Source: Obrimoposthia wandeli
Lineage: Eukaryota
Reading direction: 5' to 3'
Assembly: GCA_977020255.1 (NCBI GenBank)
Contig: CDROCS010000890.1
Location: forward strand, 62,001 to 126,000
DNA: 64,000 nt
Shown: positions 6,119 to 54,616 of the stretch, one piece after another
Layout of the letters: each line of letters begins with the position of its first letter
Numbering within the stretch: position 1 is the stretch's first letter
Program-made: the position numbers and the translations under genes
The notes under the pieces: generated by a model
What the model was told of the DNA's origin: nothing
Seen by the model: the letters and a program-made list of their open reading frames with translations, nothing else
Database searches by the model: none

Positions 6119-6570
6119 CAGCGGTTCCCAACCTTTCTGGTGCGGTGACCCCTTGATAACATTTGCCAAGTTGCGGTGACCCATTGATAACATTTGCCAA
6201 GTTGCGGTGACCCCTTGATAACATTTGCCAAGTTGCGGTGACCCCTTTATAACATTTGCCAAGTTGCGGTGACCCCTTGATAACATTTGCCAAGTTGCAG
6301 TGACCCCAAGGATAACATTTGCCAAGTTGTGGTGACCCCTTGATAGCATTTGCCAAGTTGCGGTGACCCCTTGATAACATTTGCCAAGTAGCGGTGACCC
6401 CAAGGATAAAATAATTTTATCAACACAACAATTTGTAATATTTTAACTACAAAAAATTTATTGGCACAACTTGAAACAATTGAATAAAAAAAATTTTTAA
6501 TAAGGCCTTGCTGCCTTAGGCGACTCCAGGCAAATTGTCAGGCGACCCCAGATGGGGTTGGGAACCGCTG
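6119..6570. mobile_element. hAT-family MITE (Charlie-like ends)
   Basis: Terminal inverted repeats (TIRs) CAGCGGTTCCCAACC / GGTTGGGAACCGCTG with a perfect 8-bp TSD CTCTAGGA (6111-6118, 6571-6578). Confidence 0.9.
6141..6408. repeat. 31-bp minisatellite (~8.5 copies) inside the MITE
   Basis: Unit TGCGGTGACCCCTTGATAACATTTGCCAAGT recurs at 6141, 6172, 6203 and onward. Confidence 0.92.
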
Positions 6571-18090: not shown

Positions 18091-19849
18091 TTCATTTAAA
18101 AAAAGTTATATTTGGTGATTGATTGAATTCATTTTACTTTGCAGTACTTTGAATTTTATTCCTTAAAATGTTGGTAAAATTTGACTAAATTTTTACTTTT
18201 AGCTTTGTTCTTTGTACAGCGATGACACCTGGTATTTAATCATTGTAATAATGGATTTTTTCATTTTGTTTGATTATACCTGAGGTTTACATTTTCATTA
18301 AAGTATAACTGGTGTCTTGTATAATTCTTTTTATCAAAAGATTTCGTATATCACTCCAGTAGGTAGAAGGATGGAGTATAGATCACTTGACCCCCCCCTA
18401 AAGGGTGTCACTCCATAAGGGTTTCACACCAATAAAGGTGTCTTGCCACACCATAAGGGTATATGTTGCCTCACCTCTGGTGAGGCAACATAGTTGCTCC
18501 CTGTATGGTGTGGCAAGATACCTTTGCTCATGGTGACACACTTATGGTGTGAGACACCTTTAGGGGGTCAAGTGGATCTAGACTCCATCCTTCTTTGATA
18601 TACCACTATGGTCATCCATAGTTTAAAGGGTCAAGTGGCTTAGCTTAGTCTCCACCCTTCTTTTTGAGATATACCACTATGAAAGGGTCAAGTGGCTTAG
18701 TCTCCACCCTTCTTTTTGAGATATACCACTATGAAAGGGTCAAGTGGCTTAGTCTCCACCCTTATTTTTGGTTAACCACTAATTCAAAGGATCAAGTGGC
18801 TTAGTCTCCACCCTTCTTTTTTGTGATCTAGTCCATAATGAAAATTTATGATAAAGTTCACACTTAACAATTAAGAATGTATGACGTAATCATACACACA
18901 CTATTTTATGTGAAAATTTAGGATAAAGTTCACACTTATCAATTAAGAAATGTGGTTTTTAACACACACATACACTATTTTATGTGAAATTTATGATAAA
19001 GTTCACTCTTATCAATTAAGAAATGCGGTTTTTTTAACACACACATACACTATTTTATGTGAAATTTAAACTAAAGTTCACTCTTATAAGTTAATGAATG
19101 TATTACGTAATCACACACATACTATTTTATGTGAAATTTAGATCAAAGTTTTTCCTAGGCTTTCACATTTATAGAATTATGATAAAATTTCTTTAAATAA
19201 CTTCAATTATATATTAAAATAAAAAAATAAAATAAGAAAGAAGTCAGAGAATAATACAAAATTAAACACATTTATTATGTAATTTCATAATATCATCTTC
19301 AAACTTAAGTGAATACTACATTTTAAAGTAAGAAAGTCCATTCTTTATACATTCTTTTCGTTTCAACGAATAAGTTACAACAATTAATAGAAAATTAGTA
19401 AAAATATTAATTTATTTGAATATTTGAATGAGAGTTTGAATAAAATGAGAGGAAGATAGATATGAATGTAAATGAATGTAATAAATGCAATGAATGTCAT
19501 TTTACAAGTAAGATCTTAGCAGTGAATGTACTTTTAAAAATAAGAGTGTCGATAGTTTGATTGGTTGCAATTATAATATAGACTATAAGTAAAATTAAAA
19601 AGAGTTTTTGTTGAATAAATTATAGTTAGATTGAATGCAAGTATGACGAGCAAGTGATTGATAGTATGAATTCAATACAAGTAAATTAGGCTTTAGCAAG
19701 TGAATGTAATTTTAAAAATAAGAGTGTCGATAGTTTGATTGAATGCAAGTGTAATTTAGACTATAAGTAAATTAAAATAGAGTTTTTGTTGAATAAATTA
19801 TAGTTAGATTGAATGCTATAGTTTACAATAAATTTATGCATATATTCAC

Positions 19850-20630
19850 TTTAATATGTTGTAAGTTATTACTTTATTATAATTTTCAACAACAACTTCA
19901 AGTTGTTTACTTATTAAACATAAGTTTAATGTTTTGTACAATAAATTGACTTGTAAACATAATTTATTTTGGTATATTTTCAATTTAATATGTTGTAAGT
20001 TATTACTTTAATATAATTTACAACAAAAACTTCAAGTAATTTACTTGTAAACTACAATATTTATTTGTTGTTGTATATATTCAGTTTAAAAATGTTGTAA
20101 GTTAATACTTTAATATAAATTACAATTCAAATCTTCAAGTAATTTACTTATTAATCATAATTTTAATGATTTGATCAATAAATTGACTTGTAAACATAAT
20201 ATAATTTGCATATTTTCAATTTAATATATTGTAAGTTATTACTTTATTATAATTTTCAACAAAAACTTCAAGTAGTTTACTTATTAATCATAAGTTTAAT
20301 GTTTTGTACAATAAATTGACTTGTAAACATAATTTATTTTGGTATATTTTCAATTTATTTGATGTAAATTATTACTTTTATATAATTTACAACCAAAACT
20401 TCAAGAAATTTACTTAATAATCATAATTTTAATGATTTGATCAATAAATTGACTTGTAAACATAATATAATTTGCATATTTTCAATTTAATATATTGTAA
20501 GTTAATACTGTAATATTTCATTACATAAAAAGTAATTCATAGTTTACTGTCGTTTACTATAAATTTACTTGTAAACATAATATATTTATGCATTTATTCA
20601 CTTTAATACGTTTTAAGTTATTAGAATTTG
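19850..20630. repeat. Central AT-rich tandem array of the foldback element
   Basis: Repeated TAATATGTTGTAAGTTATTACTTT...CAACTTCAAGT...GACTTGTAAACATAAT modules with a period of about 120 bp. Confidence 0.75.
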
Positions 20631-20679
20631 TGTTCTTGTATTCAATGATTAACTTTTATTAAACTATTATAACATTGAC

Positions 20680-21260
20680 CTCTTATTTTTTAAAATTACA
20701 TTCACTTACTAAACCCACTTACTTGTATTGAAATTCATACTATCAATCACTTGCTCGTCATACTTGCATTCAATCTAACTATAATTTATTCAACAAAAAC
20801 TCTATTTTAATTTACTTATAGTCTAAATTACACTTGCATTCAATCAAACTATCGACACTCTTATTTTTTTAAAATTATCTACCTGCTAAACCCACTTACC
20901 ACTTGTATTGAAAAATTCAAACTATCAATCACTTGCTCGTCATACTTGCATTCAATCTAACTATAATTTATTCAACAAAAACTCTATTTTAATTTACTTA
21001 TAGTCTAAATTACACTTGCATTCAATCAAACTATCGACACTCTTATTTTTTTTTTAAAATTACATTCACTTGCTAAACCCACTTACTTGTATTGAAATTC
21101 ATACTATCAATCACTTGCTCGTCATACTTGCATTCAATCTAACTATAATTTATTCAACAAAAACTCTATTTTAATTTACTATTTATAGTCTAAATTACAC
21201 TTGCATTCAATCAAACTATCGACACTCTTATTTTTTTCTAAAATTACATTCACTTGCTAA
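20680..21260. repeat. ~180-185-bp unit repeated about 3 times in the right arm (about 2 inverted copies at 19520-19830)
   Basis: The unit CACTTGCTCGTCATACTTGCATTCAATCTAACTATAATTTATTCAACAAAAACTC...CTATCGACACTCTT is seen three times. Confidence 0.85.
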
Positions 21261-24200
21261 GACTCTTACTTGTAAAATGACATTCATACTTGCATGCATA
21301 ATTTTATTCATTTACATTCATTCTACCTCTCTTCATTTATTCAAACTCTCATTCAAATATTCAAATAAATTAATATTTTACTAATTTTCTATTAATTCCG
21401 TTGTAACTTAGTCGTTGAAACGAAAGGAAAATGTATAAAAAATGGACTTTCTTACTTTGTAAATGTTATTCACTTAAGTTTGAAGATATTATGAAATTAC
21501 ATAATAAATGTGTTTAATTTTGTATTATTCTCTGACTTCTTCTTTCTTATTTTATTTTTTTTATTTTAATATATAATTGAAGTTATTTAAAGAAATTTTA
21601 TCATAATTCTATAAATGTGAAAGCCTAGGAGAAAAACTTGATCTAAATTTCACATAAAATAGTATGTGTGTGATTACGTAATACATTCATTAACTTATAA
21701 GAGTGAACTTTAGTTTAAATTTCACATAAAATAGTGTATGTGTGTTAAAAAAAACCGCATTTCTTAATTGATAAGAGTGAGAACTTATCATAAATTTCAC
21801 ATAAAATAATTAATGTGTAATGTTAAAAACCACATTTCTTAATTGATAAGTGTGAACTTTATCCTAAATTTTCGCATAAAATAGTGTGTATTGTATAGTT
21901 ACGTCATACATTCTTAATTGTTAAGTGAACTTTATCATAAATTTTCATTATGGACTAGATCACAAAAGAAGGGGTGGGAGACTAAGCCACTTGATCCTTT
22001 GAATTAGTGGTTAACCAAAATAAGGGTGGAGACTAGACCACAAAAGAAGGGTGGAGACTAGATCACTAAAAAGAGAGTGGAACTAGATCACTAAGAAGAA
22101 TTGGAGACTAGATCACTAAAAGAGGGTGGAACTAAGCCACTTGACCCTTTCATAGTAGTATATCTCAAGAAGAGGTGGAGACTAAGCCATGACCCTTTCA
22201 TGGTGATATATCTCTCAAAAGAAGGGTGGAGACTAAGCCACTTGACCCTTTCATAGTGGTATATCTCAAAAAGAAGGGTGGAGACTAAGCCTCTTGACCC
22301 TTTAAACTATGGATGACCATAGTGGTATATCAAAGAAGGATGGAGTCTAGATCACTTGACCCCCCCCCTAAAGGGTGTCACACCATAAGGGTGTCACACC
22401 ATAAAGGTGTCTTGCCACACCATAAGGGTATATGTTGCCTCACCAGAGGTGACGACTTAATTTATTATTTTTAAGTTTGGGTAGGAAATGGAACTAATTT
22501 GGAATTTTAATTATATTTTTCTGGGAAGTACTATTTAAATTAATTTTCTTTTACATCAAATTATAAAGCAAAGATTAAAACTACACCTGTTTCCTAATTT
22601 TTTTGTAAATAAAAGTAAAAGCGTATTTTTGTTGAGTAAACTCAAATTTGCAAATGCCAAGTAACCTATTTGCAAAGTCTTTTGACTTCTTTTTACTTCA
22701 ATCACAGAAGCAAATTTGAGACACGTTAAAAGGTTTTTCGAAAGATTAGACAAAAATGTAAATAAACAACTTTCGGAAATCTAGCAAACTGAAAATCTCT
22801 ATTTTATCAGTAGCATTTTCTGTTTTGGTAATATCTAACTGGTGTAAAATCGAGAAATCGTCTTTGTTTTGAAATCAAATTGCCGGCCAAATCGTGTCGT
22901 CTGCAAATTCAAATAAATAGAGAGTGATTTTATTGTCCAGACAGATAACCGTATTCAGATCAGGTTACAGTCGCGAATAAATTATCTGCAAGCGACCATA
23001 AATTGTCATCTGGTCCACACGCAAAACTATAATCCCTCCCCTGTTTCCATCAGATTTTCTTTGCTGCTGACAAAGACACTGACGGTGATCACTGACCACT
23101 GTGAAGCTACATTTGATTTGGGATTTTATAATTGCAGATCGTTTTTCTGAAGTTAATTTCTTAACATAAACCTGAAAAGGGACATCATATTTTCAGCTTA
23201 AACACAAAGCAGTTCATTTGTTGTTTAGCCACTTTCGTGTTAATTACTCATAAATTAGCTTCATATTTACCACTGAAATTGGGAAACATCCAGAGCAGTT
23301 ATTAATGGTCAGAGGCAAAAGTGTCCATTGAGGCGTAGATAGATGGGAATTTTATTGCCAGAGATCGTGAGAGAAACGTTGTGACCAACCATCATAGTTT
23401 CACTCCACAGTATTTGCCATCGATTCGGACTCATTTGCGGCACAATGTGAGCATGGGGAGTTGGGAGTCTAGGTTCATGGAAGACTGCGTGATATAATTT
23501 ATTGTGTGAAGCTGATGATATGTTCGTACAACTCAAAAATATTTCAATGGAGCCATACACTAGAGAACAAAATTTCAGACAAAAGTTTTAATTTGAAGAA
23601 TTAATAGCACTTACTCTATTCGGCAAACATCACTATCTAAATTTATGTGAACTCTTCAATTTTCCTTCAACATTTTAAAGTACATTTTCTTCTTCCGTAC
23701 CTAGATGACTGAGAAAAATGTGTACAATAACAAATATAAGGAAACTTTCAATACAAAACGTCCTTAGATTAAAGTATATATAAAAGACAAAGAAAACCAA
23801 ATATATATTTAAAACATTCAACATCATTTCAAATCAGTTTCGTTTATTTTCCGTGAGAAATTTCTCGATATTATTTTGTTTTCTTTCTTTGATTGAAATC
23901 TACGACTTTTTTCAGATAATTGGGAAGATAAATGTCCTTTCGTAAAAAATCTGAACTACAATGATCATGATCTTACGTTTGCTTCGTATGTTCGATGTGC
24001 TGTGAGAAGATAAATGTTGTCATGTAACAAATAAAGTTTTTAGTTTCCCCCTTTTTATTGATAATGTTTGAGTTCCAATTGGCACATTTTTAGTGGAAAG
24101 AGTCAGAGTGGAAAATCTTTGTTGAATTCTCATAATTGAATTATCACCTCAAATCAGATATGTAAACAACGTCTCATGGTCAATTAAAACGTTAGGTAAA

Positions 24201-25341: not shown

Positions 25342-27160
25342 TGTTGGGGTTTCTATACGAGACTTGTATAGATCCTCTTGTGTGCGGAGGGCCCCAACGT
25401 GAGTTCTAATAGAAGCAGGTCTTAAAGTTGGTCGTGGCCTACTTAATGTTATGGTTGCCTATCTCAATTGCTTATCTGAAGGTGTTTGTTTTGACGTCTC
25501 TTAATCTGAAGGGTTTAAAACAACGTTTTCTAATGTAGGAAATCGTTTATTGTTAACACACTAGGTTAAACACAACAATACGTTTACGTACGTATTTTCT
25601 AAAAAGTTTCAGTAAAAATTCCTAAGACTTCTAAAAGTCTCACACCAGTGGGGATGAACCACGTATCGATTTTAAGTTAGGGTTGGTTGATCGCTAGAGT
25701 CTTTACTCTAATTCGCGACTGGACTCAAGTTATAGATTTTATGGAGCTGGTTGCTCTAATTCAATGGTGAGATTTTAGACAAAACCAATGCAATTTATAA
25801 TTTGTCACTTCTTAGACAATAATATTTAAAATTGGGATATTTCCAAGCAAAATAATTCAATTATAATTTGTCTCTTCTTAGACAAATAATATTTAAAATT
25901 GGGATATTTCAAGCAGACAATAATAATATTTAAAATTGGGATATTTCCAAGCAAAATAATGCAATTTATAATTTGTCACTTCTTAGACAATAATATTTAA
26001 AATTGGGATATTTCCAAGCAAAATAATTCAATTATAATTTGTCTCTTCTTAGACAATAATATTTAAAATTGGGATATTTCCAAGCAAAATAATTCAATTA
26101 TAATTTGTCTCTTCTTAGACAATAATATTTAAAATTGGGATATTTCCAAGCAAAATAATTCAATTATAATTTGTCTCTTCTTAGACAATAATATTTAAAA
26201 TTGGGATATTTCCAAGCAAAATAATTCAATTATAATTTGTCTCTTCTTAGACAATAATATTTAAAATTGGGATATTTCCAAGCAAAATAATTCAATTATA
26301 ATTTGTCTCTTCTTAGACAATAATATTTAAAATTGGGATATTTCCAAGCAAAATAATTCAATTATAATTTGTCTCTTCTTAGACTCGTCTCACCTATTTG
26401 ATCCTAGTGCTAATCCAAGATGGGTCCTTGGCTGATGAAGTCCTGTGCTTAGATTTGCGAGATATCCGAGACAATGGGGTACTAGGCTTGATGAAGTCCT
26501 GTGCTTAGATTTGCGAGATATCCGATGTTGACTTCAATTTGTGAGTAGCTAGATTCACTTGCTTTTCGTGTCGCGGAAAGACAGGTGTTTAATATGTTGG
26601 CTGGTAATAATATGCTGGTTCACGGCTAACTGACAGGTTGGGAATAATATGCTGGTTCACAGCTAACTAAATAATCGATATAGGCAGCAACTAAAAAATA
26701 CTACTGACCTGACTTTCTTCGTGTTTTGGGTTAAATTGTTCCCTGTTGTGATTTCTCGATCTCTTTTTTCTGCGAGTTTTCCTGTCAATAATCAAATTGA
26801 AACTAGACTTATATAGTCTTACCTCTGCTGTCGATCACTTGACAATGGATCGATTGCAATAGGTTTCCTTTGGCAGCTGATTTAGTTTTCTGTCAATCTT
26901 CTTAATTTTTCCTTTTTTGTCGACGTGGCTCTTTTTTTCTTAGTTAATTAATTTTTTGCACTTTTGCTTAATTAACTTAACCTTATATATAACGCATTAT
27001 ACACGACCTTCGTGGTCCTCTTAATATTTATTCCTATTTTAGTTTTAATAATTTAACTTGTTTTTAAAATTTATTTAATTCTTAACCTTGCTTTCAAGGA
27101 TTTTAATTTTGCTATAAAACAATTATTTATTTTAATTCTACTCAAAACCTAATCCTAACA
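25342..27160 (+). mobile_element. Solo LTR (Ty3/gypsy-type, 1819 bp)
   Basis: TGTTGGGG...CCTAACA termini with the 4-bp TSD CATC at 25338-25341 and 27161-27164. The first ~430 bp are closely similar to the 13112 copy. Confidence 0.9.
25800..26385. repeat. 66-bp tandem array (~9 copies) inside the solo LTR
   Basis: Unit TCTTAGACAATAATATTTAAAATTGGGATATTTCCAAGCAAAATAATTCAATTATAATTTGTCTCT recurs at 25981, 26047 and onward, with no spacers. Confidence 0.92.
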
Positions 27161-40851: not shown

Positions 40852-41094
40852 TATCGGATTGTGGTGCCAAGCAGAAACGGTAAAGTCCATTTCGTAACAA
40901 AACTATTATAAAATAATTATATGTTTAAGGAGAAATTGTTGACCTTATGATGAATCAAATAAAAACTCAGGGTTTAATAACATATTTACAAAATTTGTTC
41001 GCCGTAGAAGTGTTACGGTAATTTTCATAACAAAATATCTAATTCATCAGGTGGACACATTCATCTAAAACATAGGACACGACATTTGCATGTA
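40852..41094 (+). pseudogene. Maverick/Polinton packaging ATPase relic
   Basis: YRIVVPSRNGKVHFVTKLL (decayed Walker A), VDLMM (cf. DDLM), IFTKFVRRRSVTVIFIT (cf. LFTKxSHHRNxSVIFITQN). Cut off by the LTR at 41095. Confidence 0.5.
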
Positions 41095-41859
41095 TGTTAT
41101 AAATGAATATTTTCCAATAATGTATTGAAGTTTGAATAGTTTCAAATAATATATATTCTTCTTTTAGAAATAATTTGTTCTTCTTTTAGAAATATATTCA
41201 TAAAATAATTTGTGTGATAATGAAAACTGAATGTTATATTTGAATAGTTTCAATAGTAATTGAAGTTTGAATAGTTTCAAATAATATATATTCTTCTTTT
41301 AGAAATAATTTGTTCTTCTTTTAGAAATATATTCATAAAATAATTTGTGTGATAATGAAAAAGATCATAAAATAATTTATTAGATCATAAAATAATTTGT
41401 TAGATAAGTCTAATAATTTTTGTGTCGATAAGTCTGATCGACGATTGCTATAAATAGCAATCGTCCAAATGTCAAATACGATGTCCATTGAGGGAGAGAA
41501 AGTTGATGAAGTATCAACACACAATCACATTCACATGTGTAAGGAAGAAGCTGCAACATTAATAATCCGTGATCTTTACACATAGCCTTCTCTTAACAGT
41601 CCACATATTACAATCCTCTACATCGCTGGTCATCTCAACACTGTCTTATTGCATGGTATGATGGACTATGTTGTGGAGAAAAGGGGGAAATGACAATACA
41701 GGAGAGATTTCAGTCAACACACATTCACACTGGATAATTTTGAGAGGGAAAAACAGTGATTGTACGAAAAAGAATATAGAGATTGTGAGAGAGGAGAGAG
41801 GATATACACACCACACACCGACACTAAAGACAGCACCAAAGTTTTTGTGTGTAGCTTCA
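41095..41859 (-). repeat. 3' LTR (765 bp)
   Basis: Minus strand TGAAGC...TAACA. Nearly identical to 53050-53814 (two substitutions seen by eye). Contains an internal ~135-bp duplication. Confidence 0.88.
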
Positions 41860-42991
41860 TGTTGTCCTCAGAATCAGAGGAGGTGAGGTCTATAACCTCG
41901 GTTAAGGCAGGAAAATTAGCGTTGGTTACGCGGGGAAAAGAGACGGTCAAACCACATTCTTTTAGCAGTTCTTGTTCTTTATGGAGGAAAATTTCTCGGG
42001 TCCATTGCGTGTCTATGAGGCTAGAGTGGGTATTCTTTTGTATTTCTTTATTGAAATACCACGAAACCATTCGAGCAAGTCCGGCTTGTTCTCTACGGTT
42101 CATTTCCATTTGAATAGTTTGTGTTGCCCCTAGATCAACCGTGTGCGAAAAATCGTTTTTTTGTAATCCTAAAACTTTGAGATCGTTGGATATTCCCGTC
42201 CCTACGAAAATATTGTCTCTTAGCAAGGATTGGACACGTTCTAACACTTCGACAGAATCAGGTTGGTTTCTTAACTTCCGTTCATTAAGGCCCGTTATTC
42301 TTGTCACATAATTCCTGATTCTGTCTCTGCTATTGCATTTCGTATCCAACACGATCTGTCCGCTTCTATTCATTATTGTAATGCTAGCTAGGGTGGGTTG
42401 TTTGTTCATTTTTACTACCATTTCACAATCGACAAAAAATATTTGAGGATTGTTGGGTATGATATTCAAATGGCAGACTTGAACGGGATTAGGTCGCACA
42501 TTTTGCTCCATGAAAAATATGTTATTTCCACCCGAAAAACGAATCATCAAATCGGGAGTTATTTGATGTCTCATTAATCTGTAAGAGTGGTTTTGCAGGA
42601 GAAGGATAGAAAAATGTTTGCTTTTCCTGTGTTTTAAAAATCCACGGCCTTTTGCTACGTGAATCTCAATGTCCGTGCATATTGGTAAGAAATTCATCAA
42701 CTCAAACAGTCTTTTTTCCGTTGGCTTTTTACTATTTATGTTGAGAATTATACTTTGTCTTGGGGTGTCTCTTAACTTAATGCTATTTGGAAGCTGGGTC
42801 TGATTGTCAAAAAGCTTTATTCCGTAATGGTTATGGAAATACCTTGTTCCAAACTGTCTTATTTTTCCATAAAGGAACTTAGCCATTTTCGCCATTTCTG
42901 GACGTTGTTCTGCTAACTGGACCGACTTCTCTCTCTTTCCCCGCGGCACCACCTGCCAGTTCAAATGAGGATTCGTGCTTGTGGGTTCCAT
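41714..42991 (-). CDS. DEDDh 3'-5' exonuclease (REX4/ISG20-like) with an unknown N-terminal domain; retroelement accessory gene
   Basis: ExoI FVDCEMV, IRNYVTRITGL, ExoII VGTGISNDLKVL, ExoIII THSSLIDT. Intact frame. Likely start MEPTS at 42991 directly after a CAG acceptor; the stop lies within the 3' LTR. Confidence 0.85.
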   Translation of the reverse strand: MEPTSTNPHLNWQVVPRGKREKSVQLAEQRPEMAKMAKFLYGKIRQFGTRYFHNHYGIKLFDNQTQLPNSIKLRDTPRQSIILNINSKKPTEKRLFELMNFLPICTDIEIHVAKGRGFLKHRKSKHFSILLLQNHSYRLMRHQITPDLMIRFSGGNNIFFMEQNVRPNPVQVCHLNIIPNNPQIFFVDCEMVVKMNKQPTLASITIMNRSGQIVLDTKCNSRDRIRNYVTRITGLNERKLRNQPDSVEVLERVQSLLRDNIFVGTGISNDLKVLGLQKNDFSHTVDLGATQTIQMEMNRREQAGLARMVSWYFNKEIQKNTHSSLIDTQWTREIFLHKEQELLKECGLTVSFPRVTNANFPALTEVIDLTSSDSEDNMKLHTKTLVLSLVSVCGVYILSPLSQSLYSFSYNHCFSLSKLSSVNVC

Positions 42992-43425: not shown

Positions 43426-43734
43426 CTAATTTTCACACCCGGAATCATCGCTTTCTCCCGGTTGAAATCCCATCAAACGATTAATTACTGATCTCAATGA
43501 TACGAGAGAGTTTAATGCTTCTCTGAGTCGTCGTACTAATAATTCCTGATTTGTTTGGCTATGTTCTAATCTTTCAATTGCAACGTCAAAAGCATTATTC
43601 ATTCGTTCACATTCCATTTCCTTGTCTTTTAAATGCGATCTCAGATTTATATTCTCTATTAACAATTTATTTTCCCATTTTTTCTATCTTTTATATCTTC
43701 TTCTATTATTTTGTACTAATTTTGAATTTCTCAT
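43426..43734 (-). pseudogene. Small basic/coiled-coil accessory ORF (~100 aa, one internal stop)
   Basis: MRNSKLVQNNRRRYKR*KKWENKLLIENINLRSHLKDKEMECERMNN...RRLREALNSL, with heptad character. Confidence 0.5.
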
Positions 43735-43835
43735 TTTCTAAAATGTTAAAAAGTTTTTAAGTCTTATTTTGAGAAAGAGAAAAAAAAATTAAATCTTTTG
43801 ATTTTTACAAATCAGTGTTGTTTTTCTCTTTGTGT

Positions 43836-45045
43836 TTATAGTTCTTGATTACCGTATCTATTGATGTATTGGATGAATTTGTACCACTTGGTATTAGGGA
43901 TGTTATGAGTGGACCTGGTGGTCCATACAGTTTGTTTAAGTGAAATGATTTTTAGTTTTTATTCTTTTAAAAGTTTTTATTTTTATTATTACTTTTATTA
44001 AGATGTTAAACATTTCAATTATTATTGCTATTATTATCTTAAATTCTGTATGATATATGTTTTGTGAATGATTTCGTTGACTAAAAAATATTATATGTTT
44101 TAAGTTCATCGATTTTGATGAATTTATTGTATTTTTTAAAAAGGTTGACTGGTTTTGTATGTTTTCTTTAGAAATGATTGATGATATTTTCTTAAATATT
44201 TTTGTTGTATATTGTGTTAAATATATTTTCATTACTTTTGTTGATTTTAATATAGGTTCTTTTATTTTTATTATTAGCCAACTCCCGCAAAAAAGAGTTG
44301 GTTGAAACATTTTTGATATCTTTTTTCCTATTGTTTCTAAAGTAGTTATGTTTTTGTAAGTATTCAAAATGTGTCCCCAACTTCTATACATCATTGGTTT
44401 ATTTGTGATTACACATTCTCTATATTGTATTATTATTCTCTCTGGATATCTTATATTTTTTATGGTTAAATTTGTTTTAGTTTGTGTTTTTTCTAATTGT
44501 TTTTCTGAGTTTTTCCAAAATTATCATTATGTCCTCTATATCTAATTCTAATGAGGGCTTTATCTAAGTCGTCTATTTTTAGTTGAAATTCCCATTTTAT
44601 CATTATTTTATGTTTTGATATATATTTCGCTGTTGTTTCTAATATTGATGCTAGGTATATGTGAGTTTCTATAGTTCTTTGATAAAGTGTAATGTTTTGT
44701 GTATTTGATTTTATTTTAATTTCATATTGTGTTTCATCTCTTAAGAATGGTATTGTATATTTTCGTGATTTTATTCCTATTATTGTTATGTTTTGTTTTC
44801 TGTCTTTTTGTGTAATTTGTATATTTCCAGTTTTGTTTATAAAGAGCGAGATTTTTAACTTTATAGATGTGATTTCTGGTATTATCGTAATTAAACCAAA
44901 TTTTTTTATAAGATGTGTTGTCGAGTCATGTTTATTTATAACATTTTTTATAGTTAGTTTTTTATCATTTAGTTTGTTAGCATTTGCTCCTTGTACGTTT
45001 TTACTTATGAAGAGATAAATTGCGAATATTATTAAAATTTTTGAA
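43836..45045 (-). pseudogene. Post-integrase predicted type I membrane protein with FN3-like ectodomain (frameshifted)
   Basis: In frame after IN: hydrophobic KILIIFAIYLFISKNVQG|AN (signal-like) and KYTIPFLRDETQYEIKIKS (FN3-like). Frameshift near 44515, hydrophobic KIIIAIIIEMFNILIKVII, short tail after another shift. Confidence 0.5.
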
Positions 45046-45199
45046 AATTCCTTTATTGATATAACTATTGCCTTATTCCATTTAGATTTTTTGTTTTTAA
45101 TATTTTTTCTCTGTATATCTTGTATTGGTAACATTTGTAAAACTGTGTTTTTTGTGTTTGATCTCAAATTATATTTGTGGCTTTTTACTGTTGTATTCT

Positions 45200-46270
45200 C
45201 TTCTGGTACTTGTCGACATCTATTTATGTGTGTTCTTATTTCTTTTGATTTTAGTTCATTGTCGAGTTTAGCTGTTATGTTAGTTCCATTGGTACTAATA
45301 ACTGTATATGGTCCTTTGTATGGTTTTGATAATTTGTGTGATAATCCTACATTGATTTGTGGATTGTGAATCATTATTTTACTTCCGATTTTTATATTTG
45401 ATGGTTTAGTTCTTCTATCATAATATTCTTTGTAATTTTCTTGTATGTTTTTTACAAATAATTTAGCCTTTTCAAATGCTAGTTTTATTCTTTCTCTAAT
45501 TTCTATTTTGTATTCAGGTATTTCTAGGTATTGTGTAGTAGGTTGTAGTAATGTTAGGTCAATAGGCATTTGCGGATCTCTGAGGAACATAAGGTAAAAA
45601 GGTGTTTCTCCTGTAGATGCATGTACTGATGTTCTATATGCAAAAAGGCATGGGGGTATGTGCAAATCCCAATCTGTTTGGTTGTTGTTTGTATATGATG
45701 CCATCATATCTTCGAGGGTTCTATTAAATCTTTCTACTAATCCGTCGGTTTGAGGGTGATATGGTGTTGTATTGATCTTTTTTATGTGAAAGATTTCAGC
45801 TATTGATGCTAATACATTATTTATAAATTCAGGACCTTTGTCGGTTAATAACTTTCGGGGTGCACCGAAAGTAAAAATAATTTTTTCGACTAAAACCTTC
45901 GCGATGGTTTCAGCCTTATGATCATGTGTTGGAAAAGCTTCTGGCCATCTTGTAAAATAATCTGAAAATACTATTATATATCGATTTCCTCGGGGTGTTT
46001 CAGGTAATGGCCCCATTACATCCATGGCAACAGTTTCCATGGGGGCCGATGGATACGGTATTGGTTTTAAAGGTATCTTTGTGGTACGTAAGGTGTTTTT
46101 TCTTTTAAGACATATTTCACAAGTATTACACCAATTTTTACATCTTCTTTCATATCAATCCAATAATATTTTAAATTTAATCTTGAATGTGTCTTTTTTG
46201 TTGACAGATGTCCTCCTAAAGCTCCGTTATGATATTGAAGGAGTAATTGGCATTGTATTTCTTTAGGTAT
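45200..46270 (-). pseudogene. Integrase (HHCC, DDE core, GPY/F)
   Basis: HNGALGGH...WCNTCEIC (restored across two frameshifts near 46140 and 46085), VAMDVMGPL, LLTDKGPEF, GLVERFN, KPYKGPYTV. Confidence 0.93.
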
Positions 46271-48600
46271 AACTAGTGAGTACAGATTTTTATCGTTTAA
46301 ATAATGTAAAATATTGTTACTGAATTTATAGCGAGATTCATGAGTTTTTAAATGTTTTCTTAATTTTTCATCTGTTGGAACTTGATTGATGGTGATATAC
46401 TTAATTATTTGTTGTAATTCCGTATCTTTGCTTTGAAGATCGGTGATTACTTTATCATCATATCGAGCCTTGATTATTGTAAAAATATTTAATTCGGTGT
46501 CATTGGAATTTATTACATTTACTTCTTCTCTTATTCTAGATAGGCAATCTGCATTGGCATTTGATTTACCTTTTCTATATTTAATTTCAATATCATATTT
46601 TTGGAGAATTAACGCCCATCTCATTAATCTAGATGTTGTATCTTTATGTAATGGTCTTTGATCAGTATAAACGTGAACTTTTCGACCTAATAAGTAATGT
46701 TTAAAATGTTCCATTGCGAAACAAATAGCGAGACATTCTCTTTCTATTGTTGAATAATTTATTTCGTGTTTTTTAAGACCTCTGCTTGCGTACGCTATCA
46801 CATGATCTTTTTCATTATTATCCTGTTGTCCTAGTACTGCTCCTAACGCGTATCCACTTGCGTCAGTCATTACTAGAAACGAGTTGTTGAAATTAGGATA
46901 TCTCAATATAGGTTTTTCTATCAATTTTTGTTTTAAGTACTCGTATGACTCTTGTTGTTCCGTTTCCCATTCAAATTTTTCATCCTTTTTAATAAGTTTG
47001 TTTAATGGTGTTGCTATTTGTGCAAAGTTTCTGATAAATCGACGATAATATCCTGCAAGTCCTAAAAATTCTTGTATATTTTTTACTGTTTTTGGAATTG
47101 GAAAATTCTTTATTTTTTCTATATTACTTTCATCTGGTTGAATTCCTTTTGCTGATACTGCGTGACCTAGATAATTCACTTTGTCTTTCATCCATTCACA
47201 CTTTTTTGGTTTTAATTTTAAACCTGCTATTTTTAATCTAAGAAATACATTTTCTAAATCTTTTAAATGTTCTTCAAAATTTTTTGAAAAAATTAGAATA
47301 TCGTCGATATAAACCATGACATGATCGGCGTCCATCAAAATGTGACTCATGCATCTCTGAAATGTTGCTGGAGCACCTGTTAATCCAAAAGGTAAAACGT
47401 TAAATTCGTATAATCCTTCTCCTGTTGAGAATGCTGTTTTTTCTTTATCTGATTCATCTATTTCTATCTGCCAATATCCACTTTGTAAATCTAAGATTGT
47501 AAATATTTTTGCATTTTTTAGTTTATCTAAGATTTCATCGATTCTTGGAAGCGGATATGTGTCTTTATGTGTGATCTCGTTTAATTTTCTGTAATCTACG
47601 CAAAATCTTAGTGAACCATCTTTCTTTTTTATCAAAACAACTGGAGATGTCCATGCTGAAAAACTTCTTCTTATGATTTTATTTTCTAACATTCCTTTTA
47701 CCTGTCTTTGAGCTTCTTCTCTGTAAGCGTATGGGATACGGTAAGGTCGTTGTTTGATTGCTGTATTAATAGTTAACGGGAGGTTATGTTTAATTAAATC
47801 TGTTCGTCCAAGGTCATATTCATTTTTTGCAAAAATTACGTCATATTTTTCCATCAATGATTTTAGTTTTGATTTCTCATAATCATTTAATCTAATATTT
47901 TCAAATTTAACAGTGGAATTGTCTTCTATTTTTTCATTATTAATTAATTCTATATTTTCTATAACACTTATTTTTCCAAGGCGTGTTCCTACTTTTAGAT
48001 GAATCTCGTTTATGTCTCCATTTAGTATTCTGATAGGTATTGTGTTATTTCTTATTTTACAGATTATATTTGGTAGAACGTAATTTAGTGTTTCTTGTTG
48101 ATATTTATAAGGTTCGAATAAGATGTCTTTTTCTGTAACTATGTTAGTTTCTAATTGTAATATTGTTTGTGTTCTAGGTTGAAGGATGATATCTCCTTTT
48201 ATTTCCAATTCGTATTCGCTTTTAGCGTTTGGTCTGTAAATGTCTTTAATTTGATTTTTCTCAAAGTCGAAGTGAAAATTGTTTCCTAATTTCCTCAATG
48301 TATCTATTCCTATTATCATCTGACATGGACAATTTTTCATTATTCTAGTAGGTATTTTTATAAATTTATCTCCTATTTTAAAAATACAATCTAATTTACC
48401 AATAATATTTACGGGTTGACCGTTTGGTGCTGTTATTTGACTGTTATCTGTGAGAAGTAGTAATATTTGGTGTGGTTTTAAGAAATATTCGTCCAAAACT
48501 GTTACGCTTGATCCTGTGTCAATTAAAGCTTTTAATTTATACTCATTAATTTCAACTTTTACATAAGGTCGTCTATCATTATCCATTTGATTTATAGTAT
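46271..48600 (-). CDS. Pol: aspartic protease, reverse transcriptase and RNase H, in frame with upstream env C-terminus
   Basis: RPYVKV...LIDTGSS; RQRPYRIP-like KQRPYRIP; LRFCVDYRKLN; LPFGL; YIDD at 47300-47311; MTDASGYALGAVL; ERECLAI. All within ORF 46067..49555. Confidence 0.95.
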
Positions 48601-48769
48601 ATATTGTTGGTGCAGTTGATTTTTGAACTTTTGTTTCTTCTTTATATTTTTCTAAATCGGGGTATTGTGTAGATTCTGTATTCTCTTTATTTTTATTGTC
48701 TACTATTTTTTGTAAATTTGTTTCTCGCATTTCGTTTGATAATGCGTTTACAGTATTTTGATGATGATT

Positions 48770-50620
48770 AAATATAAGAAATTTTGCCAAAAATGGAAAA
48801 CATCCTAATATTAGTTTCCATGTTAATCCTCCAACTTTATAAATATAGTATGTGGATAAAATTTGACTCAATAGTATTTTAAAGCATATTAGTAGTGCAT
48901 ATATTCCTACAAGTCCAGAAAATGCTTGTCCAAATATTAAAAATTTTCCCCATATTTTTGACATTGTATTTTTTGTAGCTTTTATGTAATGGTTTGGAGA
49001 AAGTAATAAATCATAATCAGGACGGCCAATTCCGTTTGGTACTGATCTTTCAATTATTTGTGTTAAAATTCGTGATCTAATTTGAGGAAATAAAATTTCT
49101 TTTCTTAATTTGTCTATGTCTTCTTGTATGTAAATACCTTTTGTATTGAGTTCATTGTCTGACTTTATTTCTATGTCGTTATTGAGGTCGGTTAATTGTA
49201 ATTTTAATGGTTGAGCGACTATGTCTCTTCTTGGGAGTGATATCCAAATATCCTTTGAGATTTGATAATGAGGTGCCATTATGTTTGAGCAATTCATTTC
49301 CTTTATACTGAATGTATTAAAAAGTATTATTCTGGTGATTGGTTCTACGAATAGTGAATGATTTTTATATGAAATTGGTAATTCTTTAGTGCATTTATTG
49401 TGATTTCTTATATTAACTATTACTTTTTGGCATTGATACGTATATAGTACCTCTCCCATTACTCTTCCGAAAGTACCATCTGGTAACGGTAATAATGGTG
49501 TTATTAATTCTGGATTTGTAGCAATAATTGCTAGTTTTGTTTTCAATACAGTCATTCATTATCGTTTCTTTATAAATTGCTTCTATTGTCATTAATCCTT
49601 TGTGATAAAAATAATCTAATTTATTATTGAAATAATCATAATTTTTTATATCAAATTTTGTTGGTGTAGTTTTTGCATTATAAATTTTTTCTTTACTTAC
49701 ATATATTCCTTTATAATTAGTTGTATAAATAGAGTGTCCACATCGGGATTCCTCTTTCTTTTTAATAAATCGCATACCTGAACCTTGTTCAGTTGACATT
49801 AAAATAGTTGGAGTTGATGTTTTTTGTATTTTTCTAGTTCTATATGTTTTAAGTATATTTTTTGGAATTCGTTGATCTAGCTCTGGATCATCTTTGAATC
49901 TTTGACCTTGAATTATTTGGAAATTTTCTGATTTTAGTAGTATTAATTTACATTGGTCTGTTTTTACCTTATAGTATAAAATTGAAGATCCTGTGTTACA
50001 ATATCCGATATTTGCTGCACAAAAAGGCATAGTCACCATGGTATTTGTAGATGGATCAAATGTTGCTTTAAATGTTCTTAGTTCTACCTCAAAGTTTTTT
50101 ATAACTACTAAACCATTTTGTTTAACTCCCATTACGACGTATGATCCTGTTGTGCATTCTCCGTCAGATTTGATAGTTCCTACCACTGTAATCATTTGTT
50201 GTATTATTTTGTTTTTTATTGCTTTTACTTTTATTTCTCTATCTATTCTCAGTTCGCCTGTTGCAAAAGCATCTTTACAATTTAACGCGTCAACAATTAT
50301 TGGTGTTTTTCCTAATGCTGGCTTAACAATTGAATTATGGCTGTGTTTGCCGCAATATGTTATGAATGTTTCCACATGTACTCTACATTCGAAAACTTCT
50401 GTATTTATGTAATCTGTTTCCTGGTATACATGAAATAACTTGGTGGTTTTAACTTTTACTTCATTTGGATCTGCGTCGGCGCATTGTTGTAAATCCATTA
50501 GTGAATATTTATTTTGTATACTATATTTTGAACAATCATATGCTTCAAGAGCATTTATAGGTTTTATAATATTTGTAATTATACATATCATAAATATTAT
50601 TTGAATTATTTTCCATAAAT
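48770..50620 (-). pseudogene. Envelope glycoprotein, class III fusogen-like (herpes gB/chuvirus G type); one frameshift near 49555
   Basis: Signal-like IIQIIFMICIITNIIKPINA|LEAYDC...YSLMDLQQC, C-rich ectodomain (ECRV...TYCG, GECTTG, FCAANIGYC), GEVLYTYQC...CTKELPI...FVEPITRI, and C-terminal TM FLIFGQAFSGLVGIYALLICFKILL. Confidence 0.75.
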
Positions 50621-50870
50621 TCTGGATGATTTTGTTAAAATTATATGTATTTTTAAGATTTGAATTTTTACTATTTTTTGGTGATTTTCGTTTATTTTTA
50701 TTTTTCGATTTTTTATTTTGTGTTTGAGTGGTTTGATTTATTTTTGTACTTATTTGTGTTCTTTTTTCTAATGTTAGACAACCGTTTCTAAATATTTCTC
50801 CGAATTCGGATTGAGAGTTAGTACTATTTGTGTTTTGCTCATTGTTTTGGTATTGCTGATGTGTTTCTTT

Positions 50871-51562
50871 TTAGCGATTATCTATTTCTTGTTGTCTTAA
50901 TCTCATCAATGCAACCTCCTCTGTTTCCTGATTTATATCAGTGTTTTCAATAGTATGTATTGGGTTTCTGTAAGCATATTGTTGATTTTGATTGTTAAAC
51001 TGTACTGTTTTTTGACTCTGTGGTTGTGGTAGTTGTTGTTTTATTGTTGTGTTACCAAATTGGTTCATCATTGTATTTAGTTTGCTACATTCATCAGTAT
51101 TGTGATTTTTCATATTACAAATTTTACAAAATTTTGTATTAGTATTAAAATATTTAGCTTGATTATTTTGATTATTGAAATTATTATATGGGCTTCTAAA
51201 ATTACTATTTGTTATTTGTCGATTATTTGTTCGTTGTTTATCTGTACAATAGGTGGTTCTGGGATGGCTACTGCTTCCGTTATTTCTGACGAACTATCCG
51301 AGTCAGATGTTTGTGGTGAAGGTAAACTCTCTGTATCTGAGGTTAAAGCTAGGTCCAGATGTTCTGAGAGTGGGGAAGTCTGTGTAAGTAAATCGTTATT
51401 TGTTGTAAAACTGATTTGTGATTTGGGTCTTTGAACTGTTTTTTCACTGGAGTCTGTTCTAACTAATCTTGTTTGAATTCTTCTCCAGTGAAGGCTAGCG
51501 CTACGTTTTTGTTTACTTATTTTGTGTGTCTGTTTTTGTGATAGATCTTTGGGTTTGTGTTA
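50871..51562 (-). pseudogene. Gag remnant with CCHC zinc knuckle; capsid domain apparently missing
   Basis: CKICNMKNHNTDEC (C-x2-C-x4-H-x4-C) at 51087-51128. An upstream Ser/Pro-rich frame joins via a frameshift near 51240. Confidence 0.7.
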
Positions 51563-53035
51563 TTAATAATTTATTTAAAGTTTCACAATCAAATATTGCA
51601 CAAATGAAAAATGCGTACTGCGTACTGAAACTAAAAATATTTCGGAGGAATTCGTAAAAGTTATTTAGTCAATCTCAAAATCAAACTCTCTTATCAATAT
51701 TAAAAACACGCTCTCTGAAAATCTCTGGAGAAAATTTATCTTTCCGAAGTTTTATTTTATTTTGTTTTTTAATTTTTTAGAACAATAACAAGACTCAAAA
51801 ATTTATCTCAACAATCTCTGTCCCTTATCACTTTGAGCACTACCACCGCCAACCAGTATATAGTCTTTATATGATAGCACTCGACGTAACTTGGGAAACA
51901 AGACAATTTGCGACAAAATTTTAAATTTTTTGATCAATTTTATTTTTATACAAAAATATATTTATATGATTATTTTAACTTTTATTATCTTTTTAGTTAT
52001 TTATTTTACTTTTACGCCTCTAATAGATAAATCTACTCCAATTTATAGTTCTCAAAAAATGAATTTCCTACTGGTAAACCGGTTCAAAGGAAAATGTTAA
52101 AATTTTTTCAAAATTTTCTATAACTCTTATGATTAAAATAATCAACACGACTCAAATTATAAAAGAAAATTAGATAACAGGACCCGACTATGTTTCCGGA
52201 AACAAAATTATGTTTTCTCTTACGAGGCTTGTGCGCAAAGCTGCGAATACCTCACTATATTTATTTTATATTATACTTATAATATTAACCAAGGTAATAT
52301 GATATAAAAGTTCTTAAAATTTTACACTAATCGCAAATTTTTCACAAAAAAAAAATTGAATGTTGTTAGCCCTGAAACTGCAAATATCGAAGGCCACAAA
52401 ACCAAAACAATATACCAAAATGGGTAAATGTAATTAACGCAAGGTTAATGGGCAAAGTTGAATGGAAACTTCAATCACTTTTAGTTATTCATATTAAAAA
52501 CATATACTACAAACAGAATATTAAAATGAAATATTTTAGATGTTATTATAATTTAATAATTATTCTGTGTGGAGCTCTATCTTCAACACCAAATTTTAAA
52601 AAGTCAAAGAATTTTAATTAAATGAATATTTGGAAATTTGATAAATTCCCTTTTCAATTTTTTTGTAGATTTTGAAAATTATAATATTAAACGTGATAGT
52701 GATGGAGAAAATTTATTTTAACCAAAGCTTATGTGTTATGAATAATACAGTAAATCAAATTATCTGGAATTAATAGTATCCAAAAGTTAATAGTATAATA
52801 GTATAATTAATATTATAATAGATAATACAGTAAATCAAATTATCTGGAATTAATAGTATCTAGAAGTTAATAGTATAATAGTATAATTAATAGTATAATA
52901 GTAGAAGATTTTAATAATATTTCACAAATAAATATAGAAATAAAGACTAATGTCTTAAAATGATCTTACAATTATCAAAAAATTAAAAATAAAAATAACA
53001 ACTCTTGCCTTTTTTTAAAAGATTCCGTGCTCTTT

Positions 53036-53048
53036 GTCGAGCTCACCA
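53036..53048 (-). promoter_or_regulatory. Primer-binding site
   Basis: TGGTGAGCTCGAC begins 1 nt after the 5' LTR end (TAACA) and is complementary to a tRNA 3' end ...GUCGAGCUCACCA. Confidence 0.75.
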
Positions 53049-53049
53049 A

Positions 53050-53814
53050 TGTTATAAATGAATATTTTCCAATAATGTATTGAAGTTTGAATAGTTTCAA
53101 ATAATATATATTCTTCTTTTAGAAATAATTTGTTCTTCTTTTAGAAATATATTCATAAAATAATTTGTGTGATAATGAAAACTGAATGTTATATTTGAAT
53201 AGTTTCAATAGTAATTGAAGTTAGAATAGTTTCAAATAATATATATTCTTCTTTTAGAAATAATTTGTTCTTCTTTTAGAAATATATTCATAAAATAATT
53301 TGTGTGATAATGAAAAAGATCATAAAATAATTTATTAGATCATAAAATAATTTGTTAGATAAGTCTAATAATTTTTGTGTCGATAAGTCTAATCGACGAT
53401 TGCTATAAATAGCAATCGTCCAAATGTCAAATACGATGTCCATTGAGGGAGAGAAAGTTGATGAAGTATCAACACACAATCACATTCACATGTGTAAGGA
53501 AGAAGCTGCAACATTAATAATCCGTGATCTTTACACATAGCCTTCTCTTAACAGTCCACATATTACAATCCTCTACATCGCTGGTCATCTCAACACTGTC
53601 TTATTGCATGGTATGATGGACTATGTTGTGGAGAAAAGGGGGAAATGACAATACAGGAGAGATTTCAGTCAACACACATTCACACTGGATAATTTTGAGA
53701 GGGAAAAACAGTGATTGTACGAAAAAGAATATAGAGATTGTGAGAGAGGAGAGAGGATATACACACCACACACCGACACTAAAGACAGCACCAAAGTTTT
53801 TGTGTGTAGCTTCA
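53050..53814 (-). repeat. 5' LTR (765 bp)
   Basis: Direct repeat of 41095-41859, followed on the minus strand by the PBS. Confidence 0.88.
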
Positions 53815-54616
53815 TGGCCGGATTGTACAGTTGGTCAATGCAGTCACCGCTGGACCAATCAGACACACAGGTCTGGCAAATCGACGATTACTAAAAATAG
53901 CAATCGCCCAAAATTCCATCTTCACTGAATCTCTTGCAGCCAGCAATACTCAGATACGGTGCACCATCGCAGACGTTGTCGGTTATTGCTGGACACACAT
54001 CATTGTCAAAGTTAGGCATGCTGTCGGGGTCTCGCCTGCCATCTCCAAGAGTTGTGCGGGAAGAGGAGGAAAAGAGAGATGACGATGCCCAGGTTGATGG
54101 TGAACATGTAAAGGCAACTGAATAAGCTAAGCTCCAAGACCGCCATGCAGATAGGGTAGACCATGAGGTAGCTGTTGAACAGTGAGATGCCGGACATATC
54201 CGCCACGTAGTAGAAATAGGGTAGTGAAGGATACACAGGGGCGGTTGGGCAGGTGGGAAATTTGTTGTCAGGGAGGCAACTGCTTCCGAGATGGGATGAT
54301 TGAAGGTTGTTGCCTCTCCGGATGATGATGAAGGGAATAGGTCGCTGCTACTGGGCGGTAATATTTTTATGATAAGAATCCCTTTTATCAACCGCTTTTT
54401 TCGCCGCCTTCCTGATGAGCCCGGCAGGGCGAAACGGGCTAACAACCCGTCGGAGGCTGAGATTTGATAAACCTCCCTAATTGTGGGCACTTTAGATAAT
54501 TTTAAAAAATGTCAATTTAAATTGACTGTAATTTAATTAATTAATTTTAATTAAAGACCCAACATGTACATTAAAATCTTTAAAATTAAACTTTTTTAAA
54601 AAATTAATCTTTTAAA

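Follow-up and report, generated by a model that had tools for sequence, protein, structure and literature searches.

A Ty3/gypsy endogenous retrovirus of Obrimoposthia wandeli with a class III-type envelope in frame between gag and protease and a candidate second membrane protein behind integrase

A Ty3/gypsy element lies on the minus strand of the window, the 64,000-nucleotide stretch of Obrimoposthia wandeli DNA analysed here. It spans 54564-41095, which is 13,470 bp in this damaged copy and ~15.4 kb when both deletions are added back (Table 1). The original prediction placed it at 43836-51562; an element is present there, but its true extent is larger. The predicted minus-strand order of a CCHC knuckle, signal-like segment, Cys-rich glycoprotein, TM, protease, RT, RNase H, and IN was located in full, but a membrane protein after IN and two accessory ORFs were missing from that list.

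Table 1. Features of the element in the window, in the 5' to 3' order of the minus strand
Feature	Position	Strand	Remarks
5' LTR	53050..54564	-	1515 bp, TG...CA ends
Primer-binding-site-like sequence	53030..53048	-	starts TGG, one base past LTR
gag remnant	50874..51559	-	upstream open frame, deletion 51206-51217, last CCHC knuckle 51128-51087
Internal signal peptide 1	50576..50630	-	hydrophobic segment, basic stretch before
Class III (gB/chuvirus-type) Env ectodomain, predicted	48950..50550	-	frameshift near 49550 in window copy
Env transmembrane helix and second conserved, weaker hydrophobic segment	48772..48946	-	
Env-tail linker and retropepsin	48290..48771	-	DTG at 48520-48512; in frame with Env
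Spacer, RT, RNase H, start of IN zinc finger	46070..48289	-	YIDD at 47311-47300
Integrase core and C-terminal domain	45150..46154	-	
Post-integrase type I membrane protein, predicted	43805..45068	-	same frame; frameshifted in window copy
Parts of the post-integrase protein		-	signal peptide 2, 45068-45014; ectodomain, ~315 residues; hydrophobic helix, 44040-43986; basic tail
Small basic/coiled-coil ORF	43426..43734	-	~100 residues; after acceptor-like site; premature stop in window copy
ISG20/REX-type DEDDh exonuclease ORF	41862..42991	-	acceptor-like CAG directly before ATG
3' LTR remnant	41095..41861	-	last 767 bp; 2 mismatches vs 5' LTR
Target-site duplication, 4 bp	41091..41094	-	matches 54565-54568

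The LTRs with TG...CA ends, the primer-binding site, and the short target-site duplication are those of Ty3/gypsy (Metaviridae) elements, as is the PR-RT-RH-IN order with a gypsy-type RT (Pfam set; Ty3 match). Among solved structures, the best match of pol is Ty3 Gag-Pol (E 1.9e-98), far above retroviral RTs. The 5' LTR aligns along its full length with the 3' LTR of a second copy, L033 (98.6% over 1518 bp). A 768-bp repeat taken as the entire LTR was ruled out: the LTR is 1515 bp, and a ~1 kb deletion in the window copy took the 5' half of its 3' LTR. The LTRs of this family also pick up host fragments such as a CBS domain. No tRNA gene that could be the primer source was found within the window.

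The window copy is a damaged member of a young, recently active endogenous-retrovirus family with at least 93 near-identical matches. A stop at 50871-50873 separates gag from env, and the reading frame shifts near 49550 (env), 46130 (IN), and 44500 (post-IN extension); one ORF, 46067-49555, begins in the C-terminal half of Env and stays open as far as the IN zinc finger. At 51206-51217, ~0.9 kb of gag is lost, including the capsid domain and two of the three knuckles. All 29 sister loci diverge from the window sequence at 51217, and 22 of them rejoin it ~0.9 kb upstream. In sister copies, three knuckles are present along with a Retrotrans_gag-like capsid, whose PF03732 match (E 1.5e-4) falls narrowly short of the Pfam cut-off. 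The family encodes Gag, Env, PR, RT, RNase H, IN, and the further membrane protein in one frame of ~2,780 codons, with two separate ORFs downstream.

Two pieces of the window copy's Env match Pfam PF24664 (Monjiviricetes_fusion), with E 2.8e-30 and 1.6e-51, and the natural ORF of a sister copy matches it with E 3.4e-91. The Env model has a mean pLDDT of 51.5, with domains I-II mostly at 75-93. Foldseek with this model retrieves gB (E 1.8e-8) and chuvirus G (E 1.5e-26), and VIA structure alignment to HSV gB gives Z 8.0 and rmsd 7.8 with 262 aligned. A class III fold, on which the original prediction had staked itself, is thus borne out at the level of a model, and the identification of Env as a class III fusogen of gB/chuvirus type, encoded in frame with gag upstream and protease downstream, is supported. 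Env dN/dS is 0.06-0.07. The Env TM lies at about 48913-48859 and is followed by the weaker hydrophobic segment at 48826-48772 (KD 1.67). The stop-free stretch from TM to protease, predicted to be about 60 residues, measures ~65.

The junctions on both sides of env were scored at 30 loci in the genome, two of which could not be scored for TM to PR. Gag to Env is open in 17/30 copies, frameshifted in eight, and interrupted by stops in five, whereas Env-TM to PR is open in 27 of the 28 scoreable copies and always 381 nt long. A single stop-free frame from knuckle to protease occurs at two of the 30 loci. Among the 93 best-scoring extension matches, five sit in natural frames whose length, 1769-2301 codons, suffices to extend back as far as Env. 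The gag-env linker has a dN/dS of 0.22-0.36. All eight long database relatives, at 35-43% identity, carry PF24664 and protease in one chain, and five also include RT-RH-IN. These counts sustain the single Gag-Env-Pol frame and the in-frame env-PR junction in sister copies, both of which had been predicted. The window copy, with its two deletions and several frameshifts, could suggest a chimera or misassembly in which an env-bearing fragment was joined to a gypsy pol. This is extremely improbable: the TM-PR junction and the single-chain proteins from other genomes argue against it, as do the near-identical LTRs, the target-site duplication, and an env-PR query that is spanned almost end to end, at 92-100% identity, by 35 of 40 scored matches.

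Behind integrase, all five relatives with a complete integrase have a signal, ectodomain, TM, and tail, as the window's family does. Basic residues are more numerous on the N-side of signal 2 in all six proteins, whereas past the last TM they outnumber acidic residues in only four. Sequons in the second ectodomain number 33 vs 16.3 expected in the relatives (Pol: 42 vs 31.5) and 9 vs 4.3 in the window's family (p 0.016), with the excess individually significant in only two of the five relatives. Sequons are a weak marker of the lumen because Env itself has no excess (2 vs 4.5 expected). The extension of P0012 and those of P0004, P0005, and P0008 are homologous, and P0010 is weakly so (profile 11.1 bits vs 2.5 for the top shuffle). 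With the profile of the relatives' extensions, that of the window's family scored below shuffles and P0011 was likewise undetected; a search of the O. wandeli genome with that query did not find P0012. No homologue of the extension at E<=0.001 was found among 1.84 billion representatives, and Pfam returned nothing above cut-off. Modelled from its single sequence, it did not fold (pLDDT 28.7). In the ESM Atlas, the family's extension matches FN3 clusters at 0.86-0.88, all under 0.9, and the P0012 extension gives mixed receptor-like matches at 0.76-0.79; an FN3-like second ectodomain is a lead from these sub-0.9 scores.

The post-IN protein might alternatively be captured host cargo (receptor fragments, for example) that is interchangeable and plays no part in the particle, behind a Gag-Env-Pol polyprotein that is itself real. 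The ectodomains vary from 123 to 389 residues and are unrelated in sequence between the window's family, P0011, and the P0004/P0005/P0008 group, and the capture of host fragments by the LTRs fits such an origin. However, the position and the signal-ectodomain-TM-tail layout are common to all six proteins, some of the relatives' extensions are homologous, and 69 of the 93 extension matches are stop-free, a proportion biased by their being the best-scoring ones. The dN/dS of 0.35 (one pair of copies, 166 codons) points to purifying selection on the extension. We consider the cargo explanation unlikely, though it keeps appreciable weight. A second membrane protein fused behind integrase appears to be undescribed: the literature searched, available in part, contains no description of a post-IN FN3/TM protein in LTR elements, including gag-env-pro-pol ones.

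Downstream of the long frame, the exonuclease keeps all five catalytic positions. It exists as two alleles, 65-68% identical, with a dN/dS of 0.11-0.13, and both have a pyrimidine tract and CAG ahead of the ATG. No homologue at E<=0.001 was found among 1445 candidates of similar length, and the partly available literature searched gives no description of a DEDDh/ISG20 ORF in LTR elements. Because acceptor-like sites precede both accessory ORFs, the element probably splices.

The element is probably a planarian-type GAG-ENV-POL Ty3/gypsy endogenous retrovirus that makes one ER-threaded polyprotein of ~2,780 residues in which two glycoproteins flank a cytosolic loop of Pol; its topology, expression, and infectivity are predicted from sequence. 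Gag would be synthesized in the cytosol until internal signal 1 opens the ER translocon, and signal-peptidase cleavage would leave Gag membrane-anchored. The gB-like ectodomain would fold in the lumen, and the Env TM would send the chain back to the cytosol, so that PR-RT-RH-IN would form a cytosolic loop. Internal signal 2 would then translocate the second glycosylated ectodomain, anchored by the C-terminal TM and most likely serving as an attachment protein or receptor-like decoy. Threaded in this way, the chain would tether Gag and Pol to the Env-bearing membrane and couple budding with enzyme packaging, before retropepsin frees Gag and Pol. The original prediction likewise had the chain pass through the ER with Pol held on the Env tail, a reasonable proposal. 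The DEDDh nuclease and the coiled-coil ORF would most likely come from spliced subgenomic RNAs, and the nuclease probably counters RNA-based host defence.

This topology fails as drawn if the second hydrophobic segment after the Env TM spans the membrane. Moreover, a single frame would yield equimolar amounts of Gag, Env, and Pol, an unusual ratio that counts against a polyprotein; retroelements usually need Gag in excess. The genome may be one frame while spliced or prematurely polyadenylated RNAs supply most of the working proteins: Gag by itself, Gag-Pol from an RNA that skips env, and Env from a separate message. The threaded polyprotein would then be minor or absent. The acceptor-like sites and the second hydrophobic segment would suit this arrangement, which we nevertheless judge distinctly unlikely: splicing would create no need for env to be joined in frame and without stops at both its ends in families at 35-43% identity, and the gag-env linker is under purifying selection.

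Extending the threaded polyprotein to the whole GAG-ENV-POL gypsy clade is a tentative step, possible but on balance doubtful when its parts are taken jointly. The clade would consist of complex two-glycoprotein enveloped retroviruses in which Pol loops through the cytosol between a gB-like fusogen and a second glycoprotein. The latter, fused to integrase, would be a conserved-position, fast-evolving, FN3-like receptor-binding protein or decoy and, by analogy, the functional counterpart of the partner required by herpes gB; spliced accessory genes, including the ISG20-like nuclease, would act against small-RNA/dsRNA defence.

With another signal-ectodomain-TM unit closing the frame, the predicted topology is definite: Pol would be a loop in the cytosol, and the post-IN protein would be a candidate for the attachment partner of a retroelement's gB-type fusogen. 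For questions of Pol packaging, cell entry, and RNA-silencing evasion in invertebrate endogenous retroviruses, this family is a tractable case, being young, present in at least 93 near-identical copies, and equipped with a strongly selected accessory nuclease.

Nematode endogenous retroviruses with a continuous gag-env-pro-pol ORF are reportedly known. Non-canonical nematode elements with a flipped ENV/POL order (Sacco et al. 2022, PMID 35550022, as cited in PMC13524379) belong to a different host clade from the window's element. The original prediction held that env always follows pol in gypsy-type elements and that the architecture was therefore new. The premise is wrong and the novelty claim falls with it: the gag-env-pol layout is already described, with an in-frame env between gag and pol in planarian Burro elements (Arkhipova and Yushenova 2019, PMC6431247) and gB-type GAG-ENV-POL elements in flatworms, bryozoans, and nematodes, which according to this study are not monophyletic (Chary and Hayashi 2026, PMC13524379). 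The F-type env in a separate ORF after pol of Drosophila-type Errantivirus is not the arrangement seen here. Likewise, BEL/Pao elements with a chuvirus-derived glycoprotein have a BEL/Pao-type gag-pol, in contrast to the gypsy-type Pfam set and best match to Ty3 found here.

Burro/GYPSM1, as far as the available part of PMC6431247 goes, shares the in-frame env, mononegavirus fusion-protein matches, three CCHC knuckles, and accessory ORFs, and no post-IN glycoprotein or exonuclease is described there. Burro is giant, at >30 kb and 4,873-5,140 residues, compared with ~15 kb and ~2,780 residues here, and unlike Burro, the ORFs of the window's family have no BIR, BCL2, MATH, or ankyrin Pfam match. 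Bcl-2 and ankyrin are present in the relative P0009. Rotifer Vesta/Juno LTR elements (Rodriguez et al. 2017, PMC5408684) also have a captured 3'-5' exonuclease in a downstream ORF; their ORF3 is DEDDy/RNase D-like and replaces env, whereas the nuclease here is DEDDh/ISG20-like and stands alongside env. The main text of PMC13524379 mentions neither an exonuclease nor a membrane protein after IN, and says nothing of a polyprotein or single frame; as the comparison with its Smed_errantivirus_1-6 (Platyhelminthes) rests on that text, the element sequences themselves may carry these parts unannotated. These planarian errantiviruses are like the window's element in their Ty3/gypsy pol, GAG-ENV-POL order, and env of the HSV/gB-type class III fold between gag and pol. 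In domains I-II, the eight cysteines here, which form invariant columns, and nearby motifs match by eye the C1a rows in supplement 2 of PMC13524379.

The order predicted for the minus strand of the window is borne out by sequence reading and Pfam: after the CCHC knuckle and a signal-like segment (signal 1) come a cysteine-rich protein, a TM region, a linker without stops, protease (PR), reverse transcriptase (RT), RNase H (RH), and integrase (IN). Both env pieces match PF24664 Monjiviricetes_fusion (E 2.8e-30 and 1.6e-51), PR, RT, RH, and IN match gypsy-type families, and the top solved-structure relative of the RT-RH region is Ty3 (E 1.9e-98). An AlphaFold model was built from a nine-sequence alignment with the Env-PR piece of a sister copy's natural ORF; its mean pLDDT is 51.5, and domains I-II are mostly at 75-93. 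With Foldseek, the best PDB hits are herpesvirus gB structures (E 1.8e-8, TM-scores low), and the best BFVD hits are glycoproteins of chuviruses (E 1.5e-26). An unbiased comparison with 48,161 chains puts class III fusogens in each of the first eight places; HSV gB scores Z 8.0 (rmsd 7.8, 262 aligned). The model thus supports the class III gB-like fold that had been proposed for Env.

Features of the window element and its accessory ORFs
Feature	Coordinates	Strand	Basis or remark
5' LTR, TG...CA, true length 1515 bp	54564-53050	minus	comparison with other copies
CCHC knuckle	51128-51087	minus	sequence reading
Signal-like hydrophobic segment (signal 1)	50630-50576	minus	hydrophobicity
TM region of Env	48946-48772	minus	hydrophobicity
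Small accessory ORF, basic coiled-coil	43426-43734	minus	upstream of exonuclease ORF; similar acceptor-like site
DEDDh exonuclease ORF	42991-41862	minus	PF00929 E 8e-10

Near-identical LTR repeats, a target-site duplication, and deletions in the LTR and gag make the window copy a recent yet defective insertion. The region is bounded by a 767-bp repeat with 2 mismatches between its two copies, a 4-bp target-site duplication lies at the ends, and a PBS-like TGG sequence is present. Comparison with other copies shows that the first half of the 3' LTR is gone, within a ~1 kb deletion. Sister loci diverge from the window sequence at 51217 in 29 of 29 and rejoin ~0.9 kb upstream in 22; this ~0.9 kb, absent from the window copy, encodes the capsid and two further knuckles. 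The insertion measures 13,470 bp and the family length is ~15.4 kb. Upstream of the capsid methionine, the gag frame (51212-51559) is open for >100 codons rich in Ser, Thr, and Pro. LTR interiors vary among copies with 98% identity in their internal regions: one type, in sister copy L032 (L032:4974-5405), holds a CBS-domain fragment (PF00571, E 1.8e-7), and the window type (53891-54511) has a GC-rich stretch and a hydrophobic frame without Pfam match, which suggests capture of host genes into the U3. Element copies also sit inside pol of other retroelements, in RNase H and protease regions (L031:2271-3001 and L032:5973-6501). Unrelated to the element are the tandem arrays of 31-, 64-, and 66-bp units and a repeat cluster, in both orientations, at 6118-6432, 13702-13978, 18365-22374, and 25729-26427.

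Of 40 matches scored for an env-PR query in the 1.35-Gb genome, 35 have essentially full coverage at 92-100% identity. Among the first 30, the Gag-to-Env junction is open in 17, frameshifted in 8, and stopped in 5. The in-frame Env-TM-to-PR junction of the original prediction holds up: of 28 scoreable copies, 27 have it open and 1 has a stop (the other 2 copies are not scoreable), and its length is an invariant 381 nt. Frame breaks mostly differ in position between copies, with one env stop common to 3. A single natural frame runs from knuckle to protease in 2 of 30 loci, and 5 of 93 C-terminal extension matches lie within frames of 1769-2301 codons, which reach Env if they share the same stop; the whole frame is estimated from coordinates at ~2,780 codons. 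Eight proteins from databases, 1582-4029 residues long and 35-43% identical, combine PF24664 and protease in one chain, and five of them add RT, RH, and IN. Full-length env-PR sisters, open junctions, and these single-chain relatives rule out a chimera. For substitutions common to three or more copies, dN/dS-like ratios are 0.07 in env, 0.11 in gag, 0.22 in the gag-env linker, 0.03-0.04 in PR and RT, and 0.36 in the TM-PR linker, from only 10 changes; private changes, used as comparison, give 0.3-0.55 in five of six regions. Sister copies L028-L030 have synonymous divergence of 0.27-0.37 in env vs 0.04-0.13 in gag, PR, and RT, which suggests exchange of the env module between subfamilies. Five database relatives (P0004, P0005, P0007, P0008, and P0010) carry two to four retropepsin-like domains per polyprotein, and in four of these relatives one such domain lies after the integrase; the window family has one domain in all.

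In a sister copy the frame continues ~440 residues beyond IN as a basic stretch, a signal-like segment (signal 2), an ectodomain of ~315 residues, a strong hydrophobic helix, and a basic tail. The ectodomain has 9 sequons vs 4.3 expected (p 0.016). A diverged copy gives it a dN/dS of 0.35 over 166 codons vs 0.24 for IN; the extension is stop-free in 69 of its best 93 matches. All five relatives with complete IN have a signal-ectodomain-TM-tail arrangement after it, with tyrosine-bearing tails. One conserved post-integrase protein across the clade is opposed by the absence of detectable relationship between the family's extension and those of relatives, of homologues among sequence representatives, and of a predicted fold. 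FN3 identity, with scores under 0.9, is only a lead. Neither the available text of PMC6431247 and PMC13524379 nor the literature searches mention a protein of this kind; Repbase, Grohme 2018, and the GitHub data of the authors, outside this scope, may bear on it. A two-glycoprotein reading is less likely than not, and an extension that is a mere passenger, compatible with the polyprotein, is rather unlikely.

Flaviviruses thread their polyprotein through the membrane, and the element may do so in similar style. Gag would be cytosolic and stay anchored via signal 1, the Env ectodomain would be lumenal, Pol would form a cytosolic loop, the second glycoprotein would be exported via signal 2, and signal peptidase and retropepsin would cut the chain. 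Weak points of this threading are a conserved second hydrophobic segment after the Env TM, the absence of sequon excess in Env, and the equimolar Gag, Env, and Pol that one frame would yield. Expression of the element's proteins through splicing, rather than from one frame, is unlikely.

The exonuclease ORF matches ISG20 at E 1.9e-5 and SDN1 at E 3.6e-5, and each of the five catalytic positions is aligned; the ORF is without stops in 95 of its best 109 matches. A second allele, 65-68% identical, retains the catalytic residues (dN/dS 0.11-0.13, synonymous sites close to saturation). Immediately 5' of the ATG in both alleles lie a pyrimidine tract and CAG. Rotifer LTR elements have a known exonuclease ORF3, which the accessible part of PMC5408684 gives as DEDDy, in contrast to DEDDh here. 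The small ORF, in which an arginine/lysine-rich stretch precedes the coiled coil, resembles bZIP or Rev proteins in outward appearance only and has no Pfam match above cut-off. At contig C703 (412406-436806), the 3' end of the exonuclease is matched five times, in two groups with ~3 kb spacing, which suggests that the 3' end of the element has been amplified in tandem.

A genome scan for PF24664 (20,253 candidate places, of which 68 were scored) finds it elsewhere in frames that reach 5,301 codons, as large as that of Burro; contigs C76, C6901, and C6390 are examples of other families, with open frames of 4,335-5,301 codons. The nematode elements of Sacco et al. 2022 reportedly have one continuous ORF. 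Env between Gag and Pol is real, but its predicted novelty falls: planarian Burro elements encode one polyprotein in which an in-frame env separates gag from pol, called 'the first case' (PMC6431247), and the GAG-ENV-POL order with gB-type env occurs in Nematoda, Bryozoa, and Platyhelminthes, the nematode order being credited to Sacco et al. (PMC13524379). In the Burro-like relative P0009, Env is preceded by a weak Bcl-2 match and the protease is followed by ankyrin repeats. Judged by eye, the window Env has the eight cysteines of domains I-II, and the motifs around them, in common with the Schmidtea C1a sequences of PMC13524379. Together with the Burro-sized frames, this points to a probable flatworm host. 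By sequence, the element falls among the planarian-type GAG-ENV-POL gypsy elements, a known group, but outside Burro proper; its predicted post-integrase glycoprotein and putative ISG20-like nuclease make it a variant within that group.
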